Positions 11,230 through 19,810 of a stretch of 23,907 bases of DNA are shown here, in pieces (positions within the stretch are counted from its first letter, which is position 1; each line of letters opens with the position of its first letter). Both the position numbers and the translations under genes were made by a program. Below the pieces are notes generated by a model. The model made no database searches and was not told the DNA's origin. It saw nothing but the letters and a program-made list of their open reading frames with translations. This DNA is from Candidatus Thorarchaeota archaeon (GTDB lineage: Archaea; Asgardarchaeota; Thorarchaeia; Thorarchaeales; Thorarchaeaceae): assembly GCA_003345555.1 (NCBI GenBank), contig PRDJ01000076.1, positions 1-23,907 of the forward strand, written 5' to 3'.

Positions 11230-12168
11230 TCACTCTGACTGCTGACAAGTGAAGACAAATCCATGTTCGCTTATGAAACGGTACGCTTGGTATGCGGCAT
11301 GGACACCCTCAGACACTCCCGTTATTGCCTGCTTGAACTCTGTGTCCGTGACGTCGCCTGCGGCGAAGACGCCTGATACGTTAGTATAACTTGAGCGGTC
11401 GATTATGATCTCACCCTTTGGGTTCAGCGCAACCCCCAGCTTCTTTGCCAAGTCCGAAACGGGAATCCCGCCAATCGATATGAAGACACCCTGGACGCTG
11501 AGCGTGTTGTTTCCTTCGAAAGGCTTGTCTAACTTGACAGAGTTGACGCTTTGATCTCCCTGTATCGCCGTCACGTTAGTGCCAGTGATAACCTGAATCT
11601 TGGGCTCCTTCTCGACACGGACACCATTGATTGGTTCAGGTCTTATTCTCTCGCCGCGGTAAATCATGTAAATCTTCTTGCAGTATCGGGCTAGGAGAAG
11701 AGCTTCTTTCGCTGCGCTGTCACTACCTCCTATCACGGCTACCACTCTGTCTTTGAACAAAGGGGCGTCACACAGGGCACAATATGATACGCCCTTGTTC
11801 CTGAACTCGGAGTGACCCGGGACCTCAAGTTCTTTTTCTTTCATACCAGTTGCAATGAGAATTGACTTGGCCAAGAATGTCTTGTTCCCGGTGACGACGT
11901 AAAACAACCCCTCTTTGTTCCTGAATAGGTCTTCAACCTTCGCTGATTCGGTGTCCACGGGATACCCCAAGGCATGTGTCTTCAGCTTCTCGGCGAGGTC
12001 CTTTCCGGTTAGCTGGGCAAACCCGGGATAATTCGCCACATCATCTGTTAGTGTAATCTTTCCCCCGTCTGTCTCACCGATTACAATGCATGACATGTTC
12101 AATCGAGCCGCGTACATCGCAGCCGCGTACCCTGTCACGCCAGCCCCTATCACCGCAAAGTCATACAC
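11230..12168 (-). CDS. trxB: Thioredoxin-disulfide reductase (low-molecular-weight, NAD(P)H type)
   Basis: FAD motif VIGAGVTG, NYPGF, active site GVSYCALCDAP, pyridine-nucleotide motif VAVIGGSDSA followed by IYRG, and GVFAAGDVT...QAITG. GTG start overlaps the upstream TAG (TAGTG). Confidence 0.93.
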   Translation of the reverse strand: MYDFAVIGAGVTGYAAAMYAARLNMSCIVIGETDGGKITLTDDVANYPGFAQLTGKDLAEKLKTHALGYPVDTESAKVEDLFRNKEGLFYVVTGNKTFLAKSILIATGMKEKELEVPGHSEFRNKGVSYCALCDAPLFKDRVVAVIGGSDSAAKEALLLARYCKKIYMIYRGERIRPEPINGVRVEKEPKIQVITGTNVTAIQGDQSVNSVKLDKPFEGNNTLSVQGVFISIGGIPVSDLAKKLGVALNPKGEIIIDRSSYTNVSGVFAAGDVTDTEFKQAITGVSEGVHAAYQAYRFISEHGFVFTCQQSE

Positions 12169-12416
12169 TATTGTTTCCCTCCGAGCCTTCTCTCCAGTCT
12201 TCGCTGTATTCGGGCATCAAAACCGACAAAGACCTCGCCATCTATGACAGCAACCGGCACAGCTCTCTGTCTGCTTACCGCAATCAGTTCCGCAAAGAGG
12301 TCCGGACTGGTCAGGACGCATTTTTCTTCAATGGCGACTCCCTTATCAAGAAAGAACTTCCTCATCTTCTTCGAATGAGGGCATTCAGGCGCCGTGTAGA
12401 TGACTGCTTTGGCCAT
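12168..12416 (-). CDS. Glutaredoxin/NrdH-like redoxin with monothiol CPHS motif
   Basis: AVIYTAPECPHSKKMRKFF...RAVPVAVIDGEVFVGFD. ATG at 12416 with GGAG upstream. Translationally coupled to trxB. Confidence 0.85.
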   Translation of the reverse strand: MAKAVIYTAPECPHSKKMRKFFLDKGVAIEEKCVLTSPDLFAELIAVSRQRAVPVAVIDGEVFVGFDARIQRRLERRLGGKQ

Positions 12417-12589
12417 GTTGCCACACTCCATGTGAAAAGGCACGATTGGACAGAAAGATGATGTCTTGCCGGCCACGGGTAAGCAGAGTCAAATATAGCT
12501 TGTGCAACAAACTTTTAGGTCGCTAGATGGGTAAACATCTTAAGTCCGACCAGCACCGAATAGCACAGCCAACCCCTGGAGGAGCAGAG

Positions 12590-13066
12590 ATGGACAAGAC
12601 ACAAACCTTGGCTTTCATCACGAAGGCAATCGATATGGAAAACAAGATCGTGGCCATTGTTGAGCAGAATACATCAAAACTAGGTCACGTCTTTGTGAAA
12701 GACCTGCTGCTCGCTATCTCACAAGATTCGAAGAAACATGCTGCACTCTTGAGATCATTACAGGAAGCAGTCAAGGGTCCGACACCATTCATTACACAAC
12801 GAGAGCGTGATGCCATTGCGAAGGGCATCGAAGAACACATCAAACTCGAAGCAAAGGCAATTGAGACCTATGCGGAATTAGCAGACAAGAGCGACAATCA
12901 ACAGGTAAAGATTATCGCCCAAGTGATCAGAGAAGACGAGCTCAGACACCATGCCTTGCTCAAGGAACTGCACAAGACCGTGATTGAACCTGAGACACTC
13001 ACTGAAGACATAATCTACGAACTCATCTGGAAAGATGCTCCTTGGCACGGGACACCCGGTGGGTGA
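12590..13066 (+). CDS. Ferritin-like (rubrerythrin-type four-helix bundle) protein
   Basis: Internal duplication E17...DSKKH / E87...DELRHH. GGAGG SD before the ATG at 12590. C-terminal PWHGTPGG. Confidence 0.8.
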   Translation: MDKTQTLAFITKAIDMENKIVAIVEQNTSKLGHVFVKDLLLAISQDSKKHAALLRSLQEAVKGPTPFITQRERDAIAKGIEEHIKLEAKAIETYAELADKSDNQQVKIIAQVIREDELRHHALLKELHKTVIEPETLTEDIIYELIWKDAPWHGTPGG

Positions 13067-13241: not shown

Positions 13242-13790
13242 CTATGCTGTTCCAGAGACGGAGTCAACTATCTCTCTGAAATGCAAATCGAGCTGCTGCA
13301 TCCCGATGCCAGTCTTTGCAGATACGAGGGCTGAATACGTTCCGAACTTTGAGCAGAATTCACCCATCTCACGCTCAATCTCATGAAGAGAACCGGGTGT
13401 CAAGTCGATTTTGTTGCCGACAAGGATGAACCGTTTGCCGTCCCCCTTTGCCAAATTGAACGGTCCGTATTTCTCTGCCGTAGGCACCCAGTAACGATAC
13501 AGGTTCTCAAGGCTGGACATCCGCGTAACGTCGAAGAAGAACAGGCCAATCTTTGCGCCCCTTATCATGCCCTTCAACGTCTCGATGAAGCGCTCTTGGC
13601 CACCAAAGTCCCAAATGCTGAGAACGCATTCCCCTCTGTTAGGCGTTCTGATTTTCACAGTATCAAATGAGGCACCCACTGTCGTTCTTAGTAGCGAAGG
13701 ATCTGGAAAGGTCCCCCGCGTCCATCTGGACGTAAACGAAGTCTTGCCAACTTCGGTATCACCCAAAACGACGACCTTGATAATGCCCAT
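13242..13790 (-). CDS. Rab/Roc-like small GTPase with intact G1-G5 motifs
   Basis: G1 GDTEVGKTS, G2 TTVGASF, G3 WDFGGQERF, G4 VGNKID, G5 SAKTG. No C-terminal cysteine/CAAX motif. Confidence 0.93.
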   Translation of the reverse strand: MGIIKVVVLGDTEVGKTSFTSRWTRGTFPDPSLLRTTVGASFDTVKIRTPNRGECVLSIWDFGGQERFIETLKGMIRGAKIGLFFFDVTRMSSLENLYRYWVPTAEKYGPFNLAKGDGKRFILVGNKIDLTPGSLHEIEREMGEFCSKFGTYSALVSAKTGIGMQQLDLHFREIVDSVSGTA

Positions 13791-13792
13791 CG

Positions 13793-15181
13793 CTACTTCC
13801 TCGTTCGTCCGTCAATATGATTCGATTGCGCCTTCCCGAATACAACGAACCCCCTCGGACTGCTAGCAATCAACAGTAATCCGGCTCCAATCATGAGGGG
13901 CACAAGCAGAAGCAGAGGTATTCTGTTGGCAAACATGGCGACTATTCCTATTGCGAGAGATGCAAACATGAATGACTCGAATCTTGCTCCAGCTTTTCCT
14001 GAACCGGTGCGATACAACTGAATGGCCACGCGAGAAAGCCCCAGAAAGCCGAGAAGAATCAGAATCATGACAGGGACGTAGAGCGGGTCTAGGACGTATC
14101 TACCATTTTCGACAAAGGGATGACCAAGAGTCAGCAGAATCGTGCAAAACCCAAATGCAATATCCCTAGAAGCATTCCGTATCTGCTCTGAGACGTTCGC
14201 TGAGACCGCGGCCATCAGGAAAGCGCATACTCCCGAGACCCCGAAGATCCAGTCAATGTACAAAATGGATGGGTCCCAGACATCATACCCGATGATGCCA
14301 GAATAGGCTATGGCGAAGTTGTTCGAGTGCGTTATTGCCAGTAAGGCAACAAATACGAGCGTATAACTGATGTAAGTAGGGGTCTTTGCTCTCGTTGATT
14401 GTGCTTGATCAATGAAGAATTCCATCGGCAGCACTGTGCATCCACCCGCAAAGGCTGCGACAGTAGCGAATGCCCAGATATCCACGTCGCCTCCGATGTA
14501 GGCTGGGAGTGCCAAGCTTATGCCAACAGTAAGTGCAAGTAAGACGATGGACAGAGTAATGATTCTTCTCCAGGGCCTCAAAAACGATCCGAGAATTGCA
14601 GCAGTGAGAACCGCAGGTGCAGCCACCAACACGAAGTACTGAGGCAACAGCGTAGGAACCTGGATTGCGACGGAGACGGCTGCGATGAGGGCCAACAGGA
14701 TTAGCGCCATAATTGATACAGTGAATGCTGAAGGTGACACCTTCATGAGATAGAGGCCCGCAGTGACAGCACAGACCAGAAAAGAAGCTAGGACTGCCAC
14801 TGTCAACGGCTGCTCAATGACACCGGATGTCAGGAAGGTATAGACTGTGTTCACGGCAACAACAGCGATACCCAGAAAGATCACTGCCGAAAGCGTCCAG
14901 AATCTCCTGTCAGAGGATACTATCAAGCTCATCTGAGCAATAAGCAGGAGTCCGAACAAGACAGCTATCCATATCGGAGCAAGGAATGTCTCAATCACAC
15001 TTTGAATCTCTAGAACACCCATAACTAGACTAGCTATGAGGAAAATCAAGAGTGCCCGCACAGTCTGTGAAGAGACCTTTCGGTAAGTACTTCTAAGTCT
15101 GAGAGTATAGACACCTGCTGCCAAGAACACTTCTAGGCTTGATATGACGACAGCTACGTACAGAGACAGGGTGAAATCCAT
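13793..15181 (-). CDS. Polytopic integral membrane protein of unknown function (~14-15 TM segments)
   Basis: 462 aa of almost continuous hydrophobic segments with short loops. AGGAGG SD. Its stop lies 2 nt before the GTPase ATG. Confidence 0.85.
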   Translation of the reverse strand: MDFTLSLYVAVVISSLEVFLAAGVYTLRLRSTYRKVSSQTVRALLIFLIASLVMGVLEIQSVIETFLAPIWIAVLFGLLLIAQMSLIVSSDRRFWTLSAVIFLGIAVVAVNTVYTFLTSGVIEQPLTVAVLASFLVCAVTAGLYLMKVSPSAFTVSIMALILLALIAAVSVAIQVPTLLPQYFVLVAAPAVLTAAILGSFLRPWRRIITLSIVLLALTVGISLALPAYIGGDVDIWAFATVAAFAGGCTVLPMEFFIDQAQSTRAKTPTYISYTLVFVALLAITHSNNFAIAYSGIIGYDVWDPSILYIDWIFGVSGVCAFLMAAVSANVSEQIRNASRDIAFGFCTILLTLGHPFVENGRYVLDPLYVPVMILILLGFLGLSRVAIQLYRTGSGKAGARFESFMFASLAIGIVAMFANRIPLLLLVPLMIGAGLLLIASSPRGFVVFGKAQSNHIDGRTRK

Positions 15182-15198
15182 CGACTCGATTCCTCCTT

Positions 15199-15555
15199 CT
15201 ATCTCCAGAGGTCTCCGATTTCCTTCCCTCTTGCTTTGACAGTCTTCTCGATTCTAGATCTTAGCTCCTCACGCGAGCCGCTCGAACTTGTGAGCACAGC
15301 CTTTAGAGCTTCGCCCGTCTCGGTCTCCGTATCCCCTTCACAAATGATAATCCGCCCGTCCACGGTACAGTAGCCAATGACACCTTTGTCAGACTTCATG
15401 AACCTAGGCACCTTGATGGGCGCGTCTCGCATGCCAGATCTTTCAAGTGCTGCAGAAACGAGCTGCACAATCCCCGTCAATAGCGCAATCCTCTCTTCTT
15501 CTACCTGCTCATGCGGATAAAGAACCGTGGAACTCATGTCGGCAAGTTTCACCAA
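15199..15555 (-). CDS. Longin/roadblock-like small alpha/beta protein
   Basis: Pattern of short strands, helix ALLTGIVQLVSAAL, three strands (PRFMKSD, VIGYCTVD, IIICEGD) and two C-terminal helices fits the longin topology. The start is uncertain (TTG at 15555, or upstream). Confidence 0.5.
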   Translation of the reverse strand: MVKLADMSSTVLYPHEQVEEERIALLTGIVQLVSAALERSGMRDAPIKVPRFMKSDKGVIGYCTVDGRIIICEGDTETETGEALKAVLTSSSGSREELRSRIEKTVKARGKEIGDLWR

Positions 15556-15569
15556 CGCGACCAGACGTA

Positions 15570-15866
15570 CTACCGTTCTTCTCCACCCCCGAAGGCACCA
15601 CGAACCCAGTCGATTTCACGTTGTCTGCCTTTTCTCGGCTTGTCGAACTTGCCCGCCTCGACTGCTACTACCACATCTCGAATTCCGAGCGTACCGTTCT
15701 TTATGTACAGTGTTACAAGTAGTTCGTGGCCATTGTCACACTGGGTCAGGAGAGTTGGCGATCGCCCTTTGTCAACAATGCTTTTCTTGATCGACTCGAC
15801 TTCGTCATCCTTCAGAGTCATGGAAGCGGCAGAAGAGCATTCAGGACACGAAAGCATGAGCTGCAT
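15570..15866 (-). CDS. Small zinc-ribbon-like protein (CxxC...CxxxH)
   Basis: LSCPECS and TQCDNGHELLV give a C3H ligand set. First gene of the operon, 14 nt before the next ORF. Confidence 0.65.
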   Translation of the reverse strand: MQLMLSCPECSSAASMTLKDDEVESIKKSIVDKGRSPTLLTQCDNGHELLVTLYIKNGTLGIRDVVVAVEAGKFDKPRKGRQREIDWVRGAFGGGEER

Positions 15867-16063
15867 AGGAGGGACCTCTGTTCACGCACTCGTTTCTTCA
15901 AGAGCCGGCTCCGGCCTTACTCCCACCTCGAGTGCACACCGTATTTAACGAAATCTGGTGCCAATCGTATGAGACCGTCTGCAGTGTTCATACGGAAGAC
16001 TGATCGAAACTCACATGAGCTGAACCATGATAATCGGGGACGCCATGTGTCTATGAGAATACT

Positions 16064-16129: not shown

Positions 16130-18067
16130 ATGACCGTCGAAGATGTCACAAGGACTGATAGCGGTAGGGCGTTAATGCTTGCCAACGAGGCAGTAGTTCG
16201 AGCAGCCCTAGAAGCTGATGTGAAGGTAGTAGCCTGCTATCCGGGCAGCCCGACTTCTGAGATACTGGATACTTTCAGCGAGGTTCTTCCGCATTTCGGC
16301 GACTACAGGATGCAGATAGCAGCAAACGAGAAAGTGGCTCTCGAGACCGTTGCCGGGGCATCGATGGCGGGCTTGAGATCTTTGACATCGATGAAGAGCG
16401 TCGGCATGAATGTAGCCAGCGACGCGCTTTTCAGTATTGCTTACACAGGAGTGAACGCAGGGTGTGTCTGCATAGTTGCAGATGATCCACACGCGCACTC
16501 GTCTCAATCCGAACAGGACGGCCGTCATTTCGCAGAGCCATCGTACACGCCAATGATCGAACCGTCAACGGCGCAAGAATCCTATGAGATGACAAAATGG
16601 GCCTTTGAAATATCGAGCAAGTACAAGACCATAGTCATGATAAGAACGACTACGAGAGTCAACCATCAACGAGGCTTGGTCAAGCTCGGCGACCTGAAGC
16701 GCACGCCTTTCAAGAAGAACAAATGGTCAGAGGTCAAAGGCCAATACTTCACTGTTGGCGCGATAGCAAGAGAACTAAAGGCGAAGCTCCTCAAGAAGAT
16801 TGATGACATAAGACCAGAGTTCGAGCAATCGAAGTTCAACATACTCGAAGAAGGACAAGGCAGAATTGGAGTCATCACCGGAGGAGTTTCCTATCTTCAT
16901 AGTAAGGAAGCCATGAGGAACCTCGGTGTCAGTCTGCCCACTCTGAAGATAGGGACTGTCTATCCCCTTCCTGAGAAGAAAATAGCGGCTTTTCTCAAGC
17001 GGCTCGACACAGTAATCGTGGTGGAAGAACTGACTCCGTATCTCGAACTGCGAGTGACCGCCATTGCCAAGGATGCGAACCCGAAGATACGGATCATTGG
17101 GAAGCGCAGTGGAGACTTCAGCGAGATGCTCGAGTACAATGTGCCCATCGTTGAGAAGGCTCTCGCCAAGTTTCTCAAGAAGCCTTTGAGCCTTGATTAT
17201 GATGCGGTCACAAAGCGTGCAGACCAACTGAAGTCAATCCTGCTCGAGCGCAATCCCATCTTCTGTCCAGGCTGTCCACATAGAGGGACACTCTGGGCAA
17301 TCAGGCAGGCGCTATCACGCCTCCGGATTCGAGATAAGATAGTGTACAACAACGACATTGGCTGCTATTCGATGGCTATGCTTGCTCCGAACAACTTCAG
17401 TGACTCGATGTTGTCTATGGGATCTTCTGTTGGGCTTTCCGCGGGCATGGAGATGGCACTGGATGACAAAGTCATAGCAATGGTCGGCGACTCGACTCTC
17501 TACCATGCGGCTCTGCCCGGGATTGTGAACCTGATCCATCACAATGCCAATGTGACACTATTCGTACTCGACAATAGCATTACCGCAATGACAGGTCAGC
17601 AATACAATCCCAATAGCCCCTTGGACGCTGGAGAGCAGCCGGCAAGGAAGATAATCATGGAAAAGATGTTTGAGGCTCTCGGGTCCGACAGCATAACGGT
17701 AATCGACCCTTACCACACTCGCGACTGTGTGAAGCCAATCATGGATGCTCTGCAGGCTAAGGGGTTCTCTGTTGTCATATCGCGACGCGAATGTGCGCTC
17801 TATGGGGATCATCTTCGAAGAGAAAGCGAAGTGCCAATAGTCCGAAGCGTGAACGACAAGACCACTTGCCGCAGCATATACAACTGTGTAAAGGAATTCT
17901 ACTGCCCTGCAATCACAGTTGACGAATCAGATTCCAAGATGCGTATTCAGACTGACCTCTGCGACGGCTGTTTGGAGTGCCGCCAAGTATGTCCAACCAG
18001 TGCTCCTGCGCACGTTGATGGAACAACCGAAGGGCCGGCACATATGAGCAGTGGAACTCCGGGGTGA
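16130..18067 (+). CDS. iorA: Indolepyruvate:ferredoxin oxidoreductase alpha subunit
   Basis: ANEAVVRAALE, YPGSPTSEI, NEKVALE, SMKSVGMNVASD, DDPHAHSSQSEQD, FCPGCPHR, DIGCYS, TPP motif GDSTLYH...LDNSITAMTGQQ, and a C-terminal ferredoxin domain (CDGCLECRQVCP). Confidence 0.95.
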   Translation: MTVEDVTRTDSGRALMLANEAVVRAALEADVKVVACYPGSPTSEILDTFSEVLPHFGDYRMQIAANEKVALETVAGASMAGLRSLTSMKSVGMNVASDALFSIAYTGVNAGCVCIVADDPHAHSSQSEQDGRHFAEPSYTPMIEPSTAQESYEMTKWAFEISSKYKTIVMIRTTTRVNHQRGLVKLGDLKRTPFKKNKWSEVKGQYFTVGAIARELKAKLLKKIDDIRPEFEQSKFNILEEGQGRIGVITGGVSYLHSKEAMRNLGVSLPTLKIGTVYPLPEKKIAAFLKRLDTVIVVEELTPYLELRVTAIAKDANPKIRIIGKRSGDFSEMLEYNVPIVEKALAKFLKKPLSLDYDAVTKRADQLKSILLERNPIFCPGCPHRGTLWAIRQALSRLRIRDKIVYNNDIGCYSMAMLAPNNFSDSMLSMGSSVGLSAGMEMALDDKVIAMVGDSTLYHAALPGIVNLIHHNANVTLFVLDNSITAMTGQQYNPNSPLDAGEQPARKIIMEKMFEALGSDSITVIDPYHTRDCVKPIMDALQAKGFSVVISRRECALYGDHLRRESEVPIVRSVNDKTTCRSIYNCVKEFYCPAITVDESDSKMRIQTDLCDGCLECRQVCPTSAPAHVDGTTEGPAHMSSGTPG

Positions 18068-18071
18068 TAGA

Positions 18072-18695
18072 ATGAAGGACACTTATGATATCATGTTCTG
18101 CGGCGTTGGTGGCCAAGGACTCATGCTTCTGTCTGCAATCTTAGGCAAAGCGGCAGTCGACTCGGGTCTGGAAGTGATGACGGGCGAGCAACATGGCCTG
18201 TCACAACGACACGGCTCCATCTATGTCCATTTTAGAGTTGGCAAGCCAATCTCTCCACTTATTCCATATGGCAAGGCTGACCTCGTAATTGCCATGGAGG
18301 CAACAGAGGCCCTAAGATACGTTGAGTACCTGAGGGATGACGGAGTTGTCATAATGAGCAAGAGGATAATGCCCCCACCTTCGGAGACTGGAGCAGTAGC
18401 CCTAGACAAAGAGAAGAAGAGAAAGTACGTCACAGTCGACCAAATCGTCGAGAGGCTTAATGCAGTGACGCACAAGATAGTTGCCCTGGATTCTCTTGAG
18501 CTTGCAACGAAAGCCGGAAATCCCCTTACGGAAAACTCAGTGCTAGTCGGAGCGGCTTGCGCTTGTCCGGACTTCCCTATTCCCACCGAAGCCGTCAGAA
18601 AAGCCCTGCTCTCATTAGTGCCAAGGAAGACCGTCGAAGCAAACTCGGCCGCGTTCGATCTCGGTCGACAAGCCGGCGGTACGTGTCTGGGGTGA
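18072..18695 (+). CDS. iorB: Indolepyruvate:ferredoxin oxidoreductase beta subunit
   Basis: CGVGGQGLML, EQHGLSQRHGS, SPLIPYGKAD, EALRY, NSVLVGA, N..AFDLG. ATG at 18072 with a GGGGTGA SD. Confidence 0.93.
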   Translation: MKDTYDIMFCGVGGQGLMLLSAILGKAAVDSGLEVMTGEQHGLSQRHGSIYVHFRVGKPISPLIPYGKADLVIAMEATEALRYVEYLRDDGVVIMSKRIMPPPSETGAVALDKEKKRKYVTVDQIVERLNAVTHKIVALDSLELATKAGNPLTENSVLVGAACACPDFPIPTEAVRKALLSLVPRKTVEANSAAFDLGRQAGGTCLG

Positions 18696-18796
18696 AGGAG
18701 CCCTATCTCAAGTTTCGCTGGTGCCAACACCTACTTGATGAACCAGTCGAATAGAGATATTAGAAAGGGTTTGCACGGTCCATCTGAGGAAAATCG

Positions 18797-19810
18797 TTGA
18801 GCGTTCCTAGGCTCTGTGACACTATCGTAATAGGCGGAGGCCCCGCTGGCTGCTCGGCAGCACTTCATCTCGCATATCATAAACGATCTGTCCTAGTTCT
18901 TGACAGAGGAACCAGCCCCATGTGTTTTCATACTAACTCTATCATGAACTTCGCCGCAGGACCCACCTACTTCGAGGGGCGAACTCTGCTGCGTCAGCTC
19001 CAAGGGCTTGCCCAGTCAGCAGGGGCAGTCTTCAAGGCGGCCAACGTTGCTGAAGTGAGCGGACGGTACCCCGAGTTCAAGCTCAGAACAGAAAAGAGCT
19101 ATAGAACGAATGACGAATCTGAGTATAGGTGCAAGACCCTGATATTCGCCACCGGCACAGCCCGCAAACATCCTCTAGTGGACGGCAAATGGAGACTGTG
19201 GCTACCCGTAGCTGACGTTGGCAACGCGGCCTTCTACTGCCCGGACTGTGAAGCGCCGTTGTGTCGCGACAAAGATGTGCTTGTTGTTAACGCAGGCTCG
19301 GTTGGCAGCGCCCTGCATGTCGCAAACGCGGTCAGCAGATTTGCCAAGAGAGTAAGAATCCTCATGACAGAGGATGCGTACGTTCCCTTCGAGGAGCAGG
19401 ACCAGAGCAAACTCAATGCCGCTCCTTTCGAGTGGATTCACGGCAAGATAAGGTCTGTCGAGTTCCCGAGACCTGGCAGGGTACAGTCTTTGACTCTCAC
19501 CAATGGTGAGAAAATCAAAACAGAGGTCTTCCTCGTTGCCCACGTGGCAAGAGCAAGGTCTGAACTTGCACAGAGCATCGGCATTCAAGTTGACGAAAAG
19601 GGAAACATCATTACAGATCACAGAGGCAAGACCAACATCGAAGGAGTTTGGGCTGCAGGAGACGTAAGACCAATTACTCAGCAAGTGGCCATGGCAGTAG
19701 GCACAGGGAATTACGCCGCTTTGATGATTGACCAGTTCCTTGGTAACGATTACGAAAGCGAACAAACGTTCGATCACCCCGAATGCAGAGGCCTCTTGCA
19801 TCCAGACTAA
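18797..19810 (+). CDS. TrxR-like FAD-dependent disulfide oxidoreductase with degenerate NAD(P)H-binding site
   Basis: IVIGGGPAGCSAA, IFATG, active site FYCPDCEA, TNIEGVWAAGDV...QQVAMAVGTG. The second dinucleotide motif reads VLVVNAGSVGSA and ILMTED. Confidence 0.85.
   Translation: MSVPRLCDTIVIGGGPAGCSAALHLAYHKRSVLVLDRGTSPMCFHTNSIMNFAAGPTYFEGRTLLRQLQGLAQSAGAVFKAANVAEVSGRYPEFKLRTEKSYRTNDESEYRCKTLIFATGTARKHPLVDGKWRLWLPVADVGNAAFYCPDCEAPLCRDKDVLVVNAGSVGSALHVANAVSRFAKRVRILMTEDAYVPFEEQDQSKLNAAPFEWIHGKIRSVEFPRPGRVQSLTLTNGEKIKTEVFLVAHVARARSELAQSIGIQVDEKGNIITDHRGKTNIEGVWAAGDVRPITQQVAMAVGTGNYAALMIDQFLGNDYESEQTFDHPECRGLLHPD

Follow-up and report, generated by a model that had tools for sequence, protein, structure and literature searches.

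A conserved four-gene module in Thorarchaeota combining genes for a Rab-like GTPase, a predicted longin-fold protein, a zinc ribbon and a predicted double seven-helix membrane protein

Introduction

Do four adjacent genes in a Thorarchaeota genome encode one small-GTPase switch together with its own regulator and its own membrane partner? The question is raised by a minus-strand operon at positions 13242-15866 of a stretch of 23,907 nucleotides (nt), here called the window, from Candidatus Thorarchaeota archaeon (assembly GCA_003345555.1, contig PRDJ01000076.1). The block holds genes for a zinc-ribbon protein, a small protein with a predicted longin fold, a polytopic membrane protein and a Rab-like GTPase. 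Longin and roadblock domains serve as the platforms that bind GTPases in MglB, Ragulator, TRAPP, Mon1-Ccz1, DENN, FLCN-FNIP and GATOR1. Asgard archaea encode dozens of small GTPases and dozens of longin/roadblock proteins, and for few of these is it established which regulator belongs to which switch, and at which site. In the cultured strain MK-D1, GTPase genes are generally not located in operons with such regulators, and matching them is hence difficult (Tran et al., 2024; PMC10933270).

The sequence bears out the four genes, which are tightly coupled and kept together as a unit. We consider the chances about even that they encode one dedicated membrane-associated small-GTPase switch with a receptor-like membrane protein, and we infer the physical contacts, the direction of regulation, the sensed signal and the output of such a switch. 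The module itself pairs one GTPase clade with a longin-fold protein, a zinc-ribbon protein and a membrane protein that are conserved, duplicated and diversified together, and it thereby points to a testable switch, regulator and membrane partner in those archaea that are most closely related to eukaryotes.

A tightly coupled block of four genes

Four co-directional open reading frames (ORFs) of 98, 118, 462 and 182 amino acids (aa) fill the interval on the minus strand. The ORF listing agrees with a preliminary description of this DNA, which had reported four genes with Shine-Dalgarno (SD) motifs and, with the called starts, gaps of 14, 17 and 2 nt. In the order of transcription they are:

15570-15866, minus strand: gene 1, zinc-ribbon protein of 98 aa, with a match to Pfam Zn_ribbon_Brz
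15199-15576, minus strand: gene 2, longin-fold protein according to a structure model, 125 aa from the most likely ACG start; the called ORF, 15199-15555, starts at TTG and gives 118 aa
13793-15181, minus strand: gene 3, predicted membrane protein of 462 aa with 15 transmembrane (TM) helices, from hydropathy and an AlphaFold2 (AF2) model
13242-13790, minus strand: gene 4, Rab/Ras-like small GTPase of 182 aa, with matches to Pfam Ras and Roc

A purine-rich SD-like motif is present at every one of the four starts: GAGGT lies 7 nt ahead of the ATG of the zinc-ribbon gene, GGTGGAG (15587-15581) 4 nt ahead of the ACG of gene 2, AAGGAGGA (15198-15191) 9 nt ahead of the ATG of the membrane-protein gene, and GAGGAAG (13802-13796), within the end of gene 3, 5 nt ahead of the ATG of the GTPase gene.

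The start of gene 2 is most likely ACG (15576-15574), giving 125 aa, rather than TTG (15555), which gives 118 aa. The longin-like proteins of ten other genera begin with M-V-V-R-L-V-A, and the position of the window's ACG is occupied in these genera by ATG in eight loci and by GTG in two, followed by the conserved VVRLVA strand; the same residues are encoded in frame in the window, just upstream of the called TTG. A locus of the same genus also has ACG at this position (L002/L013). Over the seven codons from ACG to the called start, the window and the same-genus genome differ by three synonymous and no non-synonymous changes, and these codons are under purifying selection there. The same-genus relative has an in-frame TGA three codons upstream of ACG, and 125 aa is the modal length of the longin-like family. 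Together, the ATG or GTG at the same position in ten genera, the exclusively synonymous changes and the upstream TGA point to ACG as the likely start, and so the 14-nt gap reported earlier, which stands with the called TTG, would become a 7-nt overlap of gene 2 with the zinc-ribbon gene. This overlap and the gaps of 17 and 2 nt, with an SD motif at each start, indicate translational coupling, judged from the sequence.

Conservation as a unit and paralogous modules

A search with the membrane protein gave a match in 16 of 24 genomes of the same family and in none of 16 genomes outside the family (same order or phylum), and the homologues carry the source name 'Candidatus Thorarchaeota'. The gene order zinc ribbon, longin-like protein, membrane protein, GTPase is present in 12 of 12 loci and then in all 17 of a wider set, which come from 16 genomes of one Thorarchaeota-type family and span at least 11 genera. 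Approximately 10 of these 17 loci contain a second tandem paralogue of the membrane-protein gene, and in three loci (L014, L015 and L024) the whole four-gene unit is tandemly duplicated. A gene order that is not conserved had been named beforehand as an outcome that would speak against the proposal; the order holds in 17 of 17 loci, is duplicated as a unit and is re-ordered in the paralogous modules described below.

The membrane-protein gene is present as two diverged tandem copies (approximately 30% identity) within the module of most other genera (L016, L018, L019, L021, L022 and L024-L027), and as one copy in the window's genus. These tandem copies suggest that the relatives may form hetero-oligomeric receptors.

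Outside this set, a distant longin relative (P0120, expect value (E) 7.5e-4) is encoded in an Odinarchaeia-named metagenomic contig, with the same four-gene arrangement in a different genomic context. Weak matches of the zinc-ribbon profile lead to paralogous modules composed of a zinc ribbon, a mid protein of about 135-147 aa, a membrane protein of 450-520 aa with 13-15 TM helices and often a GTPase, whose gene comes first in some of them (GTPase, zinc ribbon, mid protein, membrane protein; L064 and L076). They are found within the same family, in genomes bearing the names Atabeyarchaeum deiterrae and Promethearchaeota, and, in the window's own genome, on a further contig (C36). A profile-profile comparison with hhalign shows homology between the membrane proteins of the two module types (probability 96.7%, E 4.5e-10, 373 columns). 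A homology of the longin and mid proteins would rest on their position, their size, a shared C-terminal Trp motif and HMMER links to Odinarchaeia-type members (E 7.5e-4 and 2e-3).

The module on contig C36 (locus L069, approximately 55658-59075, plus strand) encodes a zinc ribbon, whose profile match contains an in-frame TGA, a mid protein of 139 aa, a protein of 492 aa with 12 TM helices and a GTPase; these are followed by a further ORF of 96 aa and a 132-aa copy of the mid protein.

As far as sequences go, the status of the four genes as a unit rests decisively on the Odinarchaeia locus, the paralogous modules, the homology of the membrane proteins and the GTPase tree.

A GTPase dedicated to the module

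Gene 4 encodes a bona fide small GTPase by its sequence. It matches Pfam Ras with 87.4 bits (cut-off 21.6; E 1e-24) and Roc with E 1e-20, while its match to Gtr1_RagA falls under the cut-off of that family. The nearest solved relatives in a PDB sequence search are Ypt7, Rab28 and the Thorarchaeota Rab 7EZB (E 2e-17 to 3e-16), with Rab22/31 also found. In an alignment of 19 orthologues, G1 (GDTEVGKT), the switch-I threonines TT36-37, G3 (WDFGGQ65), G4 (NKID) and G5 (SAK) show no variation; the catalytic Gln65 and every nucleotide-binding motif are intact, and the DxxGQ motif is normal. The segments VGASF, LSIW, RFIE, MIRGA and FFFDVT are similar but not identical to the RabF motifs. The protein ends in SVSGTA, and a C-terminal Cys for prenylation is absent from it and from all 19 aligned orthologues, which makes it Rab-like rather than a canonical Rab. 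The earlier account of intact G1-G5 motifs, a catalytic Gln and no prenylation Cys is thus confirmed by these invariant motifs and by the absence of a C-terminal Cys from every orthologue.

In the P-loop, GDTEVGKT, the residue that corresponds to Gly13 of Ras is a Glu throughout the subfamily, and the one that corresponds to Gly12 is Thr, Ser or Glu.

In a maximum-likelihood tree, all 30 module GTPases lie on one side of a branch with 96/91 support, and 10 of 11 other GTPases from this genome and from module neighbourhoods lie on the opposite side; the eleventh, NB_L070a, which is encoded 1 kb from a module, groups with the module GTPases. The subfamily of the window's GTPase has 100/99 support in the same tree, which was midpoint-rooted, with small outgroup sampling and without eukaryotic Rabs. 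From their grouping on one side of the 96/91 branch, the module GTPases form, at the level of sequence, a clade of their own and are dedicated, co-diversifying members of the module.

A predicted longin fold in gene 2

The product of gene 2 was modelled with AF2 in its N-terminally truncated form, with a predicted local distance difference test (pLDDT) score of 68. The order of elements in the model is strand, strand, helix, three strands and two helices, with short N-terminal strands followed by a helix at 19-40, strands at 51-55, 58-65 and 68-74, and helices at 77-89 and 95-117. This is the longin topology (b1-b2-a1-b3-b4-b5-a2-a3), with no N-terminal helix and with two C-terminal helices, and not the order a1-b1-b2-a2-b3-b4-b5 of roadblock/LC7 domains of the MglB type, which begin with a helix.

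An exhaustive structural comparison with 48,161 PDB chains (VIA) returned only longin or roadblock domains among its best 50 matches. Many of them come from complexes that act on Rab, Rag or Arf proteins as guanine nucleotide exchange factors (GEFs) or GTPase-activating proteins (GAPs), namely DENND1A, TRAPP, Mon1-Ccz1, BLOC-3 and FLCN/FNIP; Sec22 was also found. Among these 50, longin domains match over 100-117 residues of the protein and roadblock domains only over residues 1-93 or so. A search of the ESM Atlas gave the Sybindin/Sedlin proteins of TRAPP with a template modelling score (TM-score) of 0.64, adaptor sigma with 0.65 and Roadblock with 0.51. Foldseek returned no PDB match at E of 0.001 or below for the model, and its matches to Swiss-Prot models were weak.

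At the level of sequence, the protein has no match in Pfam or NCBIfam and no PDB profile match, and a profile search of 1.84 billion representative proteins with the gene 2 family found 16 proteins, all from this family itself. Two profile matches (P0117 and P0119) were discarded as low-complexity repeats. Fused forms of the longin protein, looked for at 229-2000 aa, were not found, which is weak evidence. We accept a longin fold for gene 2 at the level of the model, without claiming homology to a particular longin family. The earlier assignment of the 118-aa protein to the longin/roadblock class therefore stands for the longin fold of the model, but not for a sequence family or for the roadblock topology.

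Two predicted receptor-like bundles in the membrane protein

Hydropathy indicates about 15 TM helices in the product of gene 3, with the N terminus outside and the C terminus inside, and the positive-inside rule is obeyed. In the AF2 model (pLDDT 90.7, predicted TM-score 0.88), TM1-7 (residues 1-206) form one seven-helix (7TM) bundle and TM9-15 (residues 229-461 or so) form another, with TM8 as a linker helix between them. Because of the linker TM8, both bundles share the same N-out, C-in orientation.

When each half is considered separately, the best 50 matches in the VIA comparison are all seven-helix membrane proteins: adhesion, class A, class B and class C G-protein-coupled receptors (GPCRs), designed GPCR-like folds, microbial rhodopsins and OST-alpha. 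The residues of each bundle align separately to 7TM receptors. Atlas searches with our own model and with the Atlas model place both halves near GPCRs and near the 7TM input modules of bacterial GGDEF, MCP/7TMR-DISM, HD-GYP and histidine-kinase proteins. Foldseek gave no PDB match at E of 0.001 or below and only weak matches to Swiss-Prot models; its top PDB match was LYCHOS/GPR155, a transporter-GPCR fusion, which at E 0.098 and TM-score 0.25 is not significant. Among AlphaFold Database clusters, one Thorarchaeota homologue is automatically named DUF2339 and the other matches are tandem-GPCR models with TM-scores of approximately 0.3. The DUF2339 label was dropped, as Pfam confirms it in none of 32 members of the membrane-protein family.

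None of the 32 members matches a Pfam or NCBIfam family, and PDB sequence and profile searches gave nothing significant, in agreement with the earlier view of an unclassified polytopic protein of about 15 helices. An hhalign comparison of the N-terminal with the C-terminal half gives no sign of a repeated sequence (probability 6.5%). The second bundle is the better conserved of the two, and the C-terminal tail is variable. Conserved residues lie on the outer face of the second bundle (H285, D303, W311, R361 and N419) and in the cytoplasmic loops (P203-W204-R205, Q259, G393-F404 and S440-P442), and few conserved charged residues are found within the helices. A DRR sequence after TM3 was tried as an equivalent of the GPCR DRY motif and dropped, as it is not conserved.

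The membrane protein is thus predicted to consist of two receptor-like 7TM bundles and to represent a new superfamily. As the model contains two such bundles, it favours a sensor over a transporter-like protein.

The zinc-ribbon protein

Gene 1 encodes a CCCH zinc ribbon of the pattern CPxC...Cx3H, with C7, C10, C43 and H47 as ligands. It reaches 30.3 bits against Pfam Zn_ribbon_Brz (PF23454), above the gathering cut-off of 27.9, and with 22.2 bits it does not reach the cut-off of 100 of the NCBIfam Brz equivalog. The ESM Atlas model resembles CPXCG zinc ribbons; searches of the PDB by sequence and by profile returned no significant match. All members of the subfamily share the GRSPT and RD motifs, and the ribbon is followed by a variable acidic/basic linker and a conserved C-terminal (E)IDWxxxAFGG. 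In an alignment of 18 diverse members, C7, C10, C43, H47 and R63 are invariant even in the paralogous modules, and the C-terminal aromatic motif persists in all paralogous forms.

The zinc-ribbon proteins of all module types end in an aromatic peptide, D/K-W-x3-F/L (window, L014-L029 and L061-L068), and the longin and mid proteins end in a Trp-containing helix (EIGDLWR, DWGKTVF or NLWG). These C-terminal elements may serve as docking peptides, either on the membrane protein or between the two proteins themselves.

ORFs of about 283-291 aa in the genomes of another large Asgard family (f9; e.g., L074, 4368-5213, minus strand) have an N-terminal ribbon with a weak match to the zinc-ribbon profile (E about 1e-5 to 1e-8). 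These proteins of about 285 aa were dropped as members of the module, since no module surrounds them (L074); they may represent a fused or unrelated use of the same ribbon.

Proposed mechanism and alternative explanations

In the switch that we propose, the membrane protein would sit in the membrane in the N-out, C-in orientation and supply the membrane site and probably, to judge by the proteins that its fold resembles, the input as well. The longin protein would dock and regulate the Rab-like GTPase on the cytoplasmic side. The zinc-ribbon protein probably works with the longin protein, since its gene always precedes, and overlaps, the longin gene. The GTPase has no lipid anchor and would therefore depend on protein partners to get to the membrane. 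The state of the membrane protein, set by a ligand, a lipid or the membrane itself, would pass via the longin and zinc-ribbon platform to the nucleotide state or the location of the GTPase, which in its GTP-bound form would act on effectors encoded outside the module. By analogy with TRAPP, Mon1-Ccz1, DENN and Ragulator, we favour a GEF-like recruiting platform for the longin protein; the alternative is a GAP, as in MglB, FLCN or GATOR1.

The predicted contact between the longin protein and the GTPase was addressed by co-folding, for which alignments of the zinc-ribbon protein, the longin protein (125-aa form) and the GTPase were used and the GTPase was scored. The ipSAE score was 0.34 (runs 0.34, 0.32 and 0.36), compared with 0.00 in all three controls, in one of which the longin chain was replaced. 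The runs share at least 54% of their contacts, and the pLDDT of the partner is at least 74. Of 80 solved complexes used for calibration, 58 reached the mark, as did 2 of 110 mismatches; at scores of 0.60 or below, it was reached by only 7 of the 80 complexes but by both mismatches. Given the strong prior from fold and operon, co-folding gives a small push towards GTPase binding. The interaction of longin protein and GTPase claimed previously is therefore weakly supported by a signal that depends on the longin chain, while a GEF or GAP role is a matter of interpretation.

Several observations weigh against a dedicated switch of this kind. The longin model has a pLDDT of 68 and a truncated N terminus, and no sequence method ties the protein to a longin or roadblock family. 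The longin family and the mid proteins of the second module type show no significant similarity in hhalign (probability 0.3%), and approximately 7 of 17 paralogous loci have no adjacent GTPase. The flanking genes (those for thioredoxin reductase, glutaredoxin, a rubrerythrin-like protein and IorAB) are also syntenic in many loci, so that part of the conserved gene order is plain vertical inheritance and the order by itself makes the case look stronger than it is. The co-folding signal is weak; by its calibration, a signal of this size is wrong in more cases than it is right, except with a high prior, and we purely infer the contact of the membrane protein with the soluble parts.

A more ambitious form of the proposal is an archaeal receptor-to-G-protein system, in which the double-7TM protein is a receptor for an external or membrane signal that, via the longin and zinc-ribbon adaptor, forms a signal-controlled exchange platform for the Rab-like GTPase; we regard it as unlikely. 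To our knowledge, coupling of a 7TM receptor to a GTPase via a longin platform has so far been seen only in eukaryotes, in GPCR-G-alpha systems and in LYCHOS or SLC38A9 with GATOR1/Ragulator and Rag. If the receptor-to-G-protein proposal were true, there would be several diversified paralogous receptor-switch pairs per genome across Asgard lineages, and if the membrane protein is truly a 7TM-type sensor, the module would show that archaea related to eukaryotes had receptor-coupled small-GTPase signalling on a longin platform.

Two other explanations assign a different role to the membrane protein, for which the preliminary description had named a sensor, a transporter-like transceptor or an anchor. 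As a passive anchor, the 15-TM protein would only tether the unlipidated GTPase, with the longin and zinc-ribbon proteins as its GEF and the module marking a membrane region for effectors. The absence of a C-terminal Cys from the GTPase, the Rab-GEF subunits (DENND1A, TRAPP, Mon1-Ccz1 and BLOC-3) that are the best matches of the longin fold and the conservation of the unit all agree with this, but a protein of 462 aa and 15 helices is costly as a mere tether. Its conserved outward polar residues (H285, D303, W311 and R361), its frequent tandem paralogues within a diversified superfamily and the similarity of both halves to the 7TM input modules of signalling proteins also argue against simple anchoring, which we hold to be improbable. 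That the membrane protein instead moves a substrate, with transport gated or reported by the GTPase and longin pair, is very unlikely: although the protein is large and polytopic and its top Foldseek match in the PDB is the partly transporter-like LYCHOS/GPR155 (at E 0.098 and TM-score 0.25), the best 50 VIA matches contain no transporter fold, the MATE and MFS matches in Foldseek have TM-scores of 0.13-0.16, no Pfam or NCBIfam transporter family is found in the 32 members, and few conserved charged residues lie inside the helices. Of the three roles named earlier, the sensor is thus the one that the two 7TM bundles favour.

The remaining explanations concern the membership of the genes in the module. 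The zinc-ribbon protein might be a Brz-like transcription regulator of the operon rather than a subunit of a complex, a view that is compatible with the proposed switch for the other three proteins. Its match to Zn_ribbon_Brz above the curated cut-off points this way, as does the precedent of Halobacterium, where bop, a gene for a 7TM protein, is reported to require the small zinc-finger protein Brz for its transcription and to have the Brz gene directly upstream of it, in the same orientation (PMC2253796). The Brz equivalog of NCBIfam is far off, however (22 bits against 100), no DNA-binding domain is recognisable in the protein, the gene is translationally coupled to the longin gene by the 7-nt overlap, and the C-terminal D-W-x3-F found in all module types looks like a protein-docking peptide; such a regulator is accordingly a rather unlikely interpretation. 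Finally, the four genes might be long-standing chromosomal neighbours without a shared function, as the synteny of the flanking redox and IorAB genes would allow. The unit is, however, duplicated whole, diverged versions occur in other Asgard classes, in other contexts and in permuted order, the GTPases co-diversify with the module, and the coding regions overlap or nearly abut, which leaves mere neighbourhood extremely improbable.

Comparison with known systems

The pairing of a small GTPase with a longin/roadblock platform is known from MglA-MglB to Rag-Ragulator. In MglA-MglB, and likewise with Thor-RB (7F8M), a prokaryotic small GTPase is encoded beside a small alpha/beta platform of the longin/roadblock superfamily, and both MglB and Thor-RB are present among the structural matches of the gene 2 model. 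In contrast to MglA-MglB, the platform here has the longin topology, the GTPase is Rab/Ras-like and not MglA-like, and there are two extra dedicated partners, the zinc ribbon and the 15-TM protein. The eukaryotic longin regulators (DENN, the TRAPP core of Bet5, Trs23 and sedlin, Mon1-Ccz1, BLOC-3, FLCN-FNIP, Nprl2/3 of GATOR1 and C9orf72-SMCR8) show no sequence relationship to the product of gene 2; they are multi-domain or multi-subunit complexes, whereas gene 2 encodes a single small domain, whose partner would be a zinc ribbon and not a second longin.

In SLC38A9-Ragulator-Rag and LYCHOS/GPR155-GATOR1, a lysosomal polytopic protein controls a small GTPase via longin/roadblock proteins, and LYCHOS has a GPCR-like bundle. 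The likeness to SLC38A9-Ragulator-Rag drawn in the preliminary description is an analogy and not a homology: the LYCHOS match is not significant, and the GTPase is Rab-like and not Rag-like. Each half of the membrane protein superposes on 7TMR-DISM, HisKA_7TM, the 7TM N-termini of GGDEF and HD-GYP proteins and the GPCR fold, and these share the N-out, C-in orientation with the output side in the cytoplasm. Unlike these 7TM sensors, the protein has two bundles and an extra helix in one chain, no fused enzymatic output domain and no sequence family match, and its output would presumably run through a longin adaptor and a small GTPase that have genes of their own.

Like Brz of Halobacterium salinarum, gene 1 encodes a small Cys/His zinc ribbon that scores above the cut-off of PF23454, and it likewise heads an operon with a gene for a membrane protein of the 7TM type. 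It is not an equivalog of Brz, and it differs in an extra beta-hairpin, the linker and the C-terminal DW..F, as well as in the organism and the gene context. A Brz-type ribbon in an operon with a 7TM gene may be there by chance, or it may indicate that ribbons of this type act together with 7TM proteins.

What differs here is the composition: a single-domain longin protein without a family, an obligatory zinc ribbon, a double-7TM protein of a new superfamily and a dedicated clade of Rab-like GTPases, and also the multiplication of the module into paralogous forms across several Asgard lineages. The literature search found no paper that describes the four-gene cassette, in line with the earlier suggestion of an undescribed system. 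The proteins are small, and their expression and reconstitution should be feasible.

Promoter region and neighbouring genes

One candidate expression signal lies upstream of the block:

15942-15948, minus strand: candidate archaeal TATA-like box TTAAATA, read from the sequence, approximately 76 nt upstream of the ATG of the zinc-ribbon gene

This candidate TATA-like promoter element is located in a divergent intergenic region of 263 nt that is common to the operon and iorA. The divergent genes iorA/iorB form the upstream boundary of the block, and downstream lie a convergent gene for a rubrerythrin-like protein and then those for glutaredoxin and thioredoxin reductase. With divergent genes on one side and a convergent gene on the other, the four genes are a candidate for a self-contained transcription unit.

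The genes for thioredoxin reductase, glutaredoxin and the rubrerythrin-like protein of 158-179 aa (window 11230-13066) keep their positions in many genera of the family, as do, around the module, IorA/IorB and a second gene for a thioredoxin reductase-like protein (window 16130-19810). Since these flanking genes are kept in many genera, the module lies in a stable chromosomal region and not in a mobile island.

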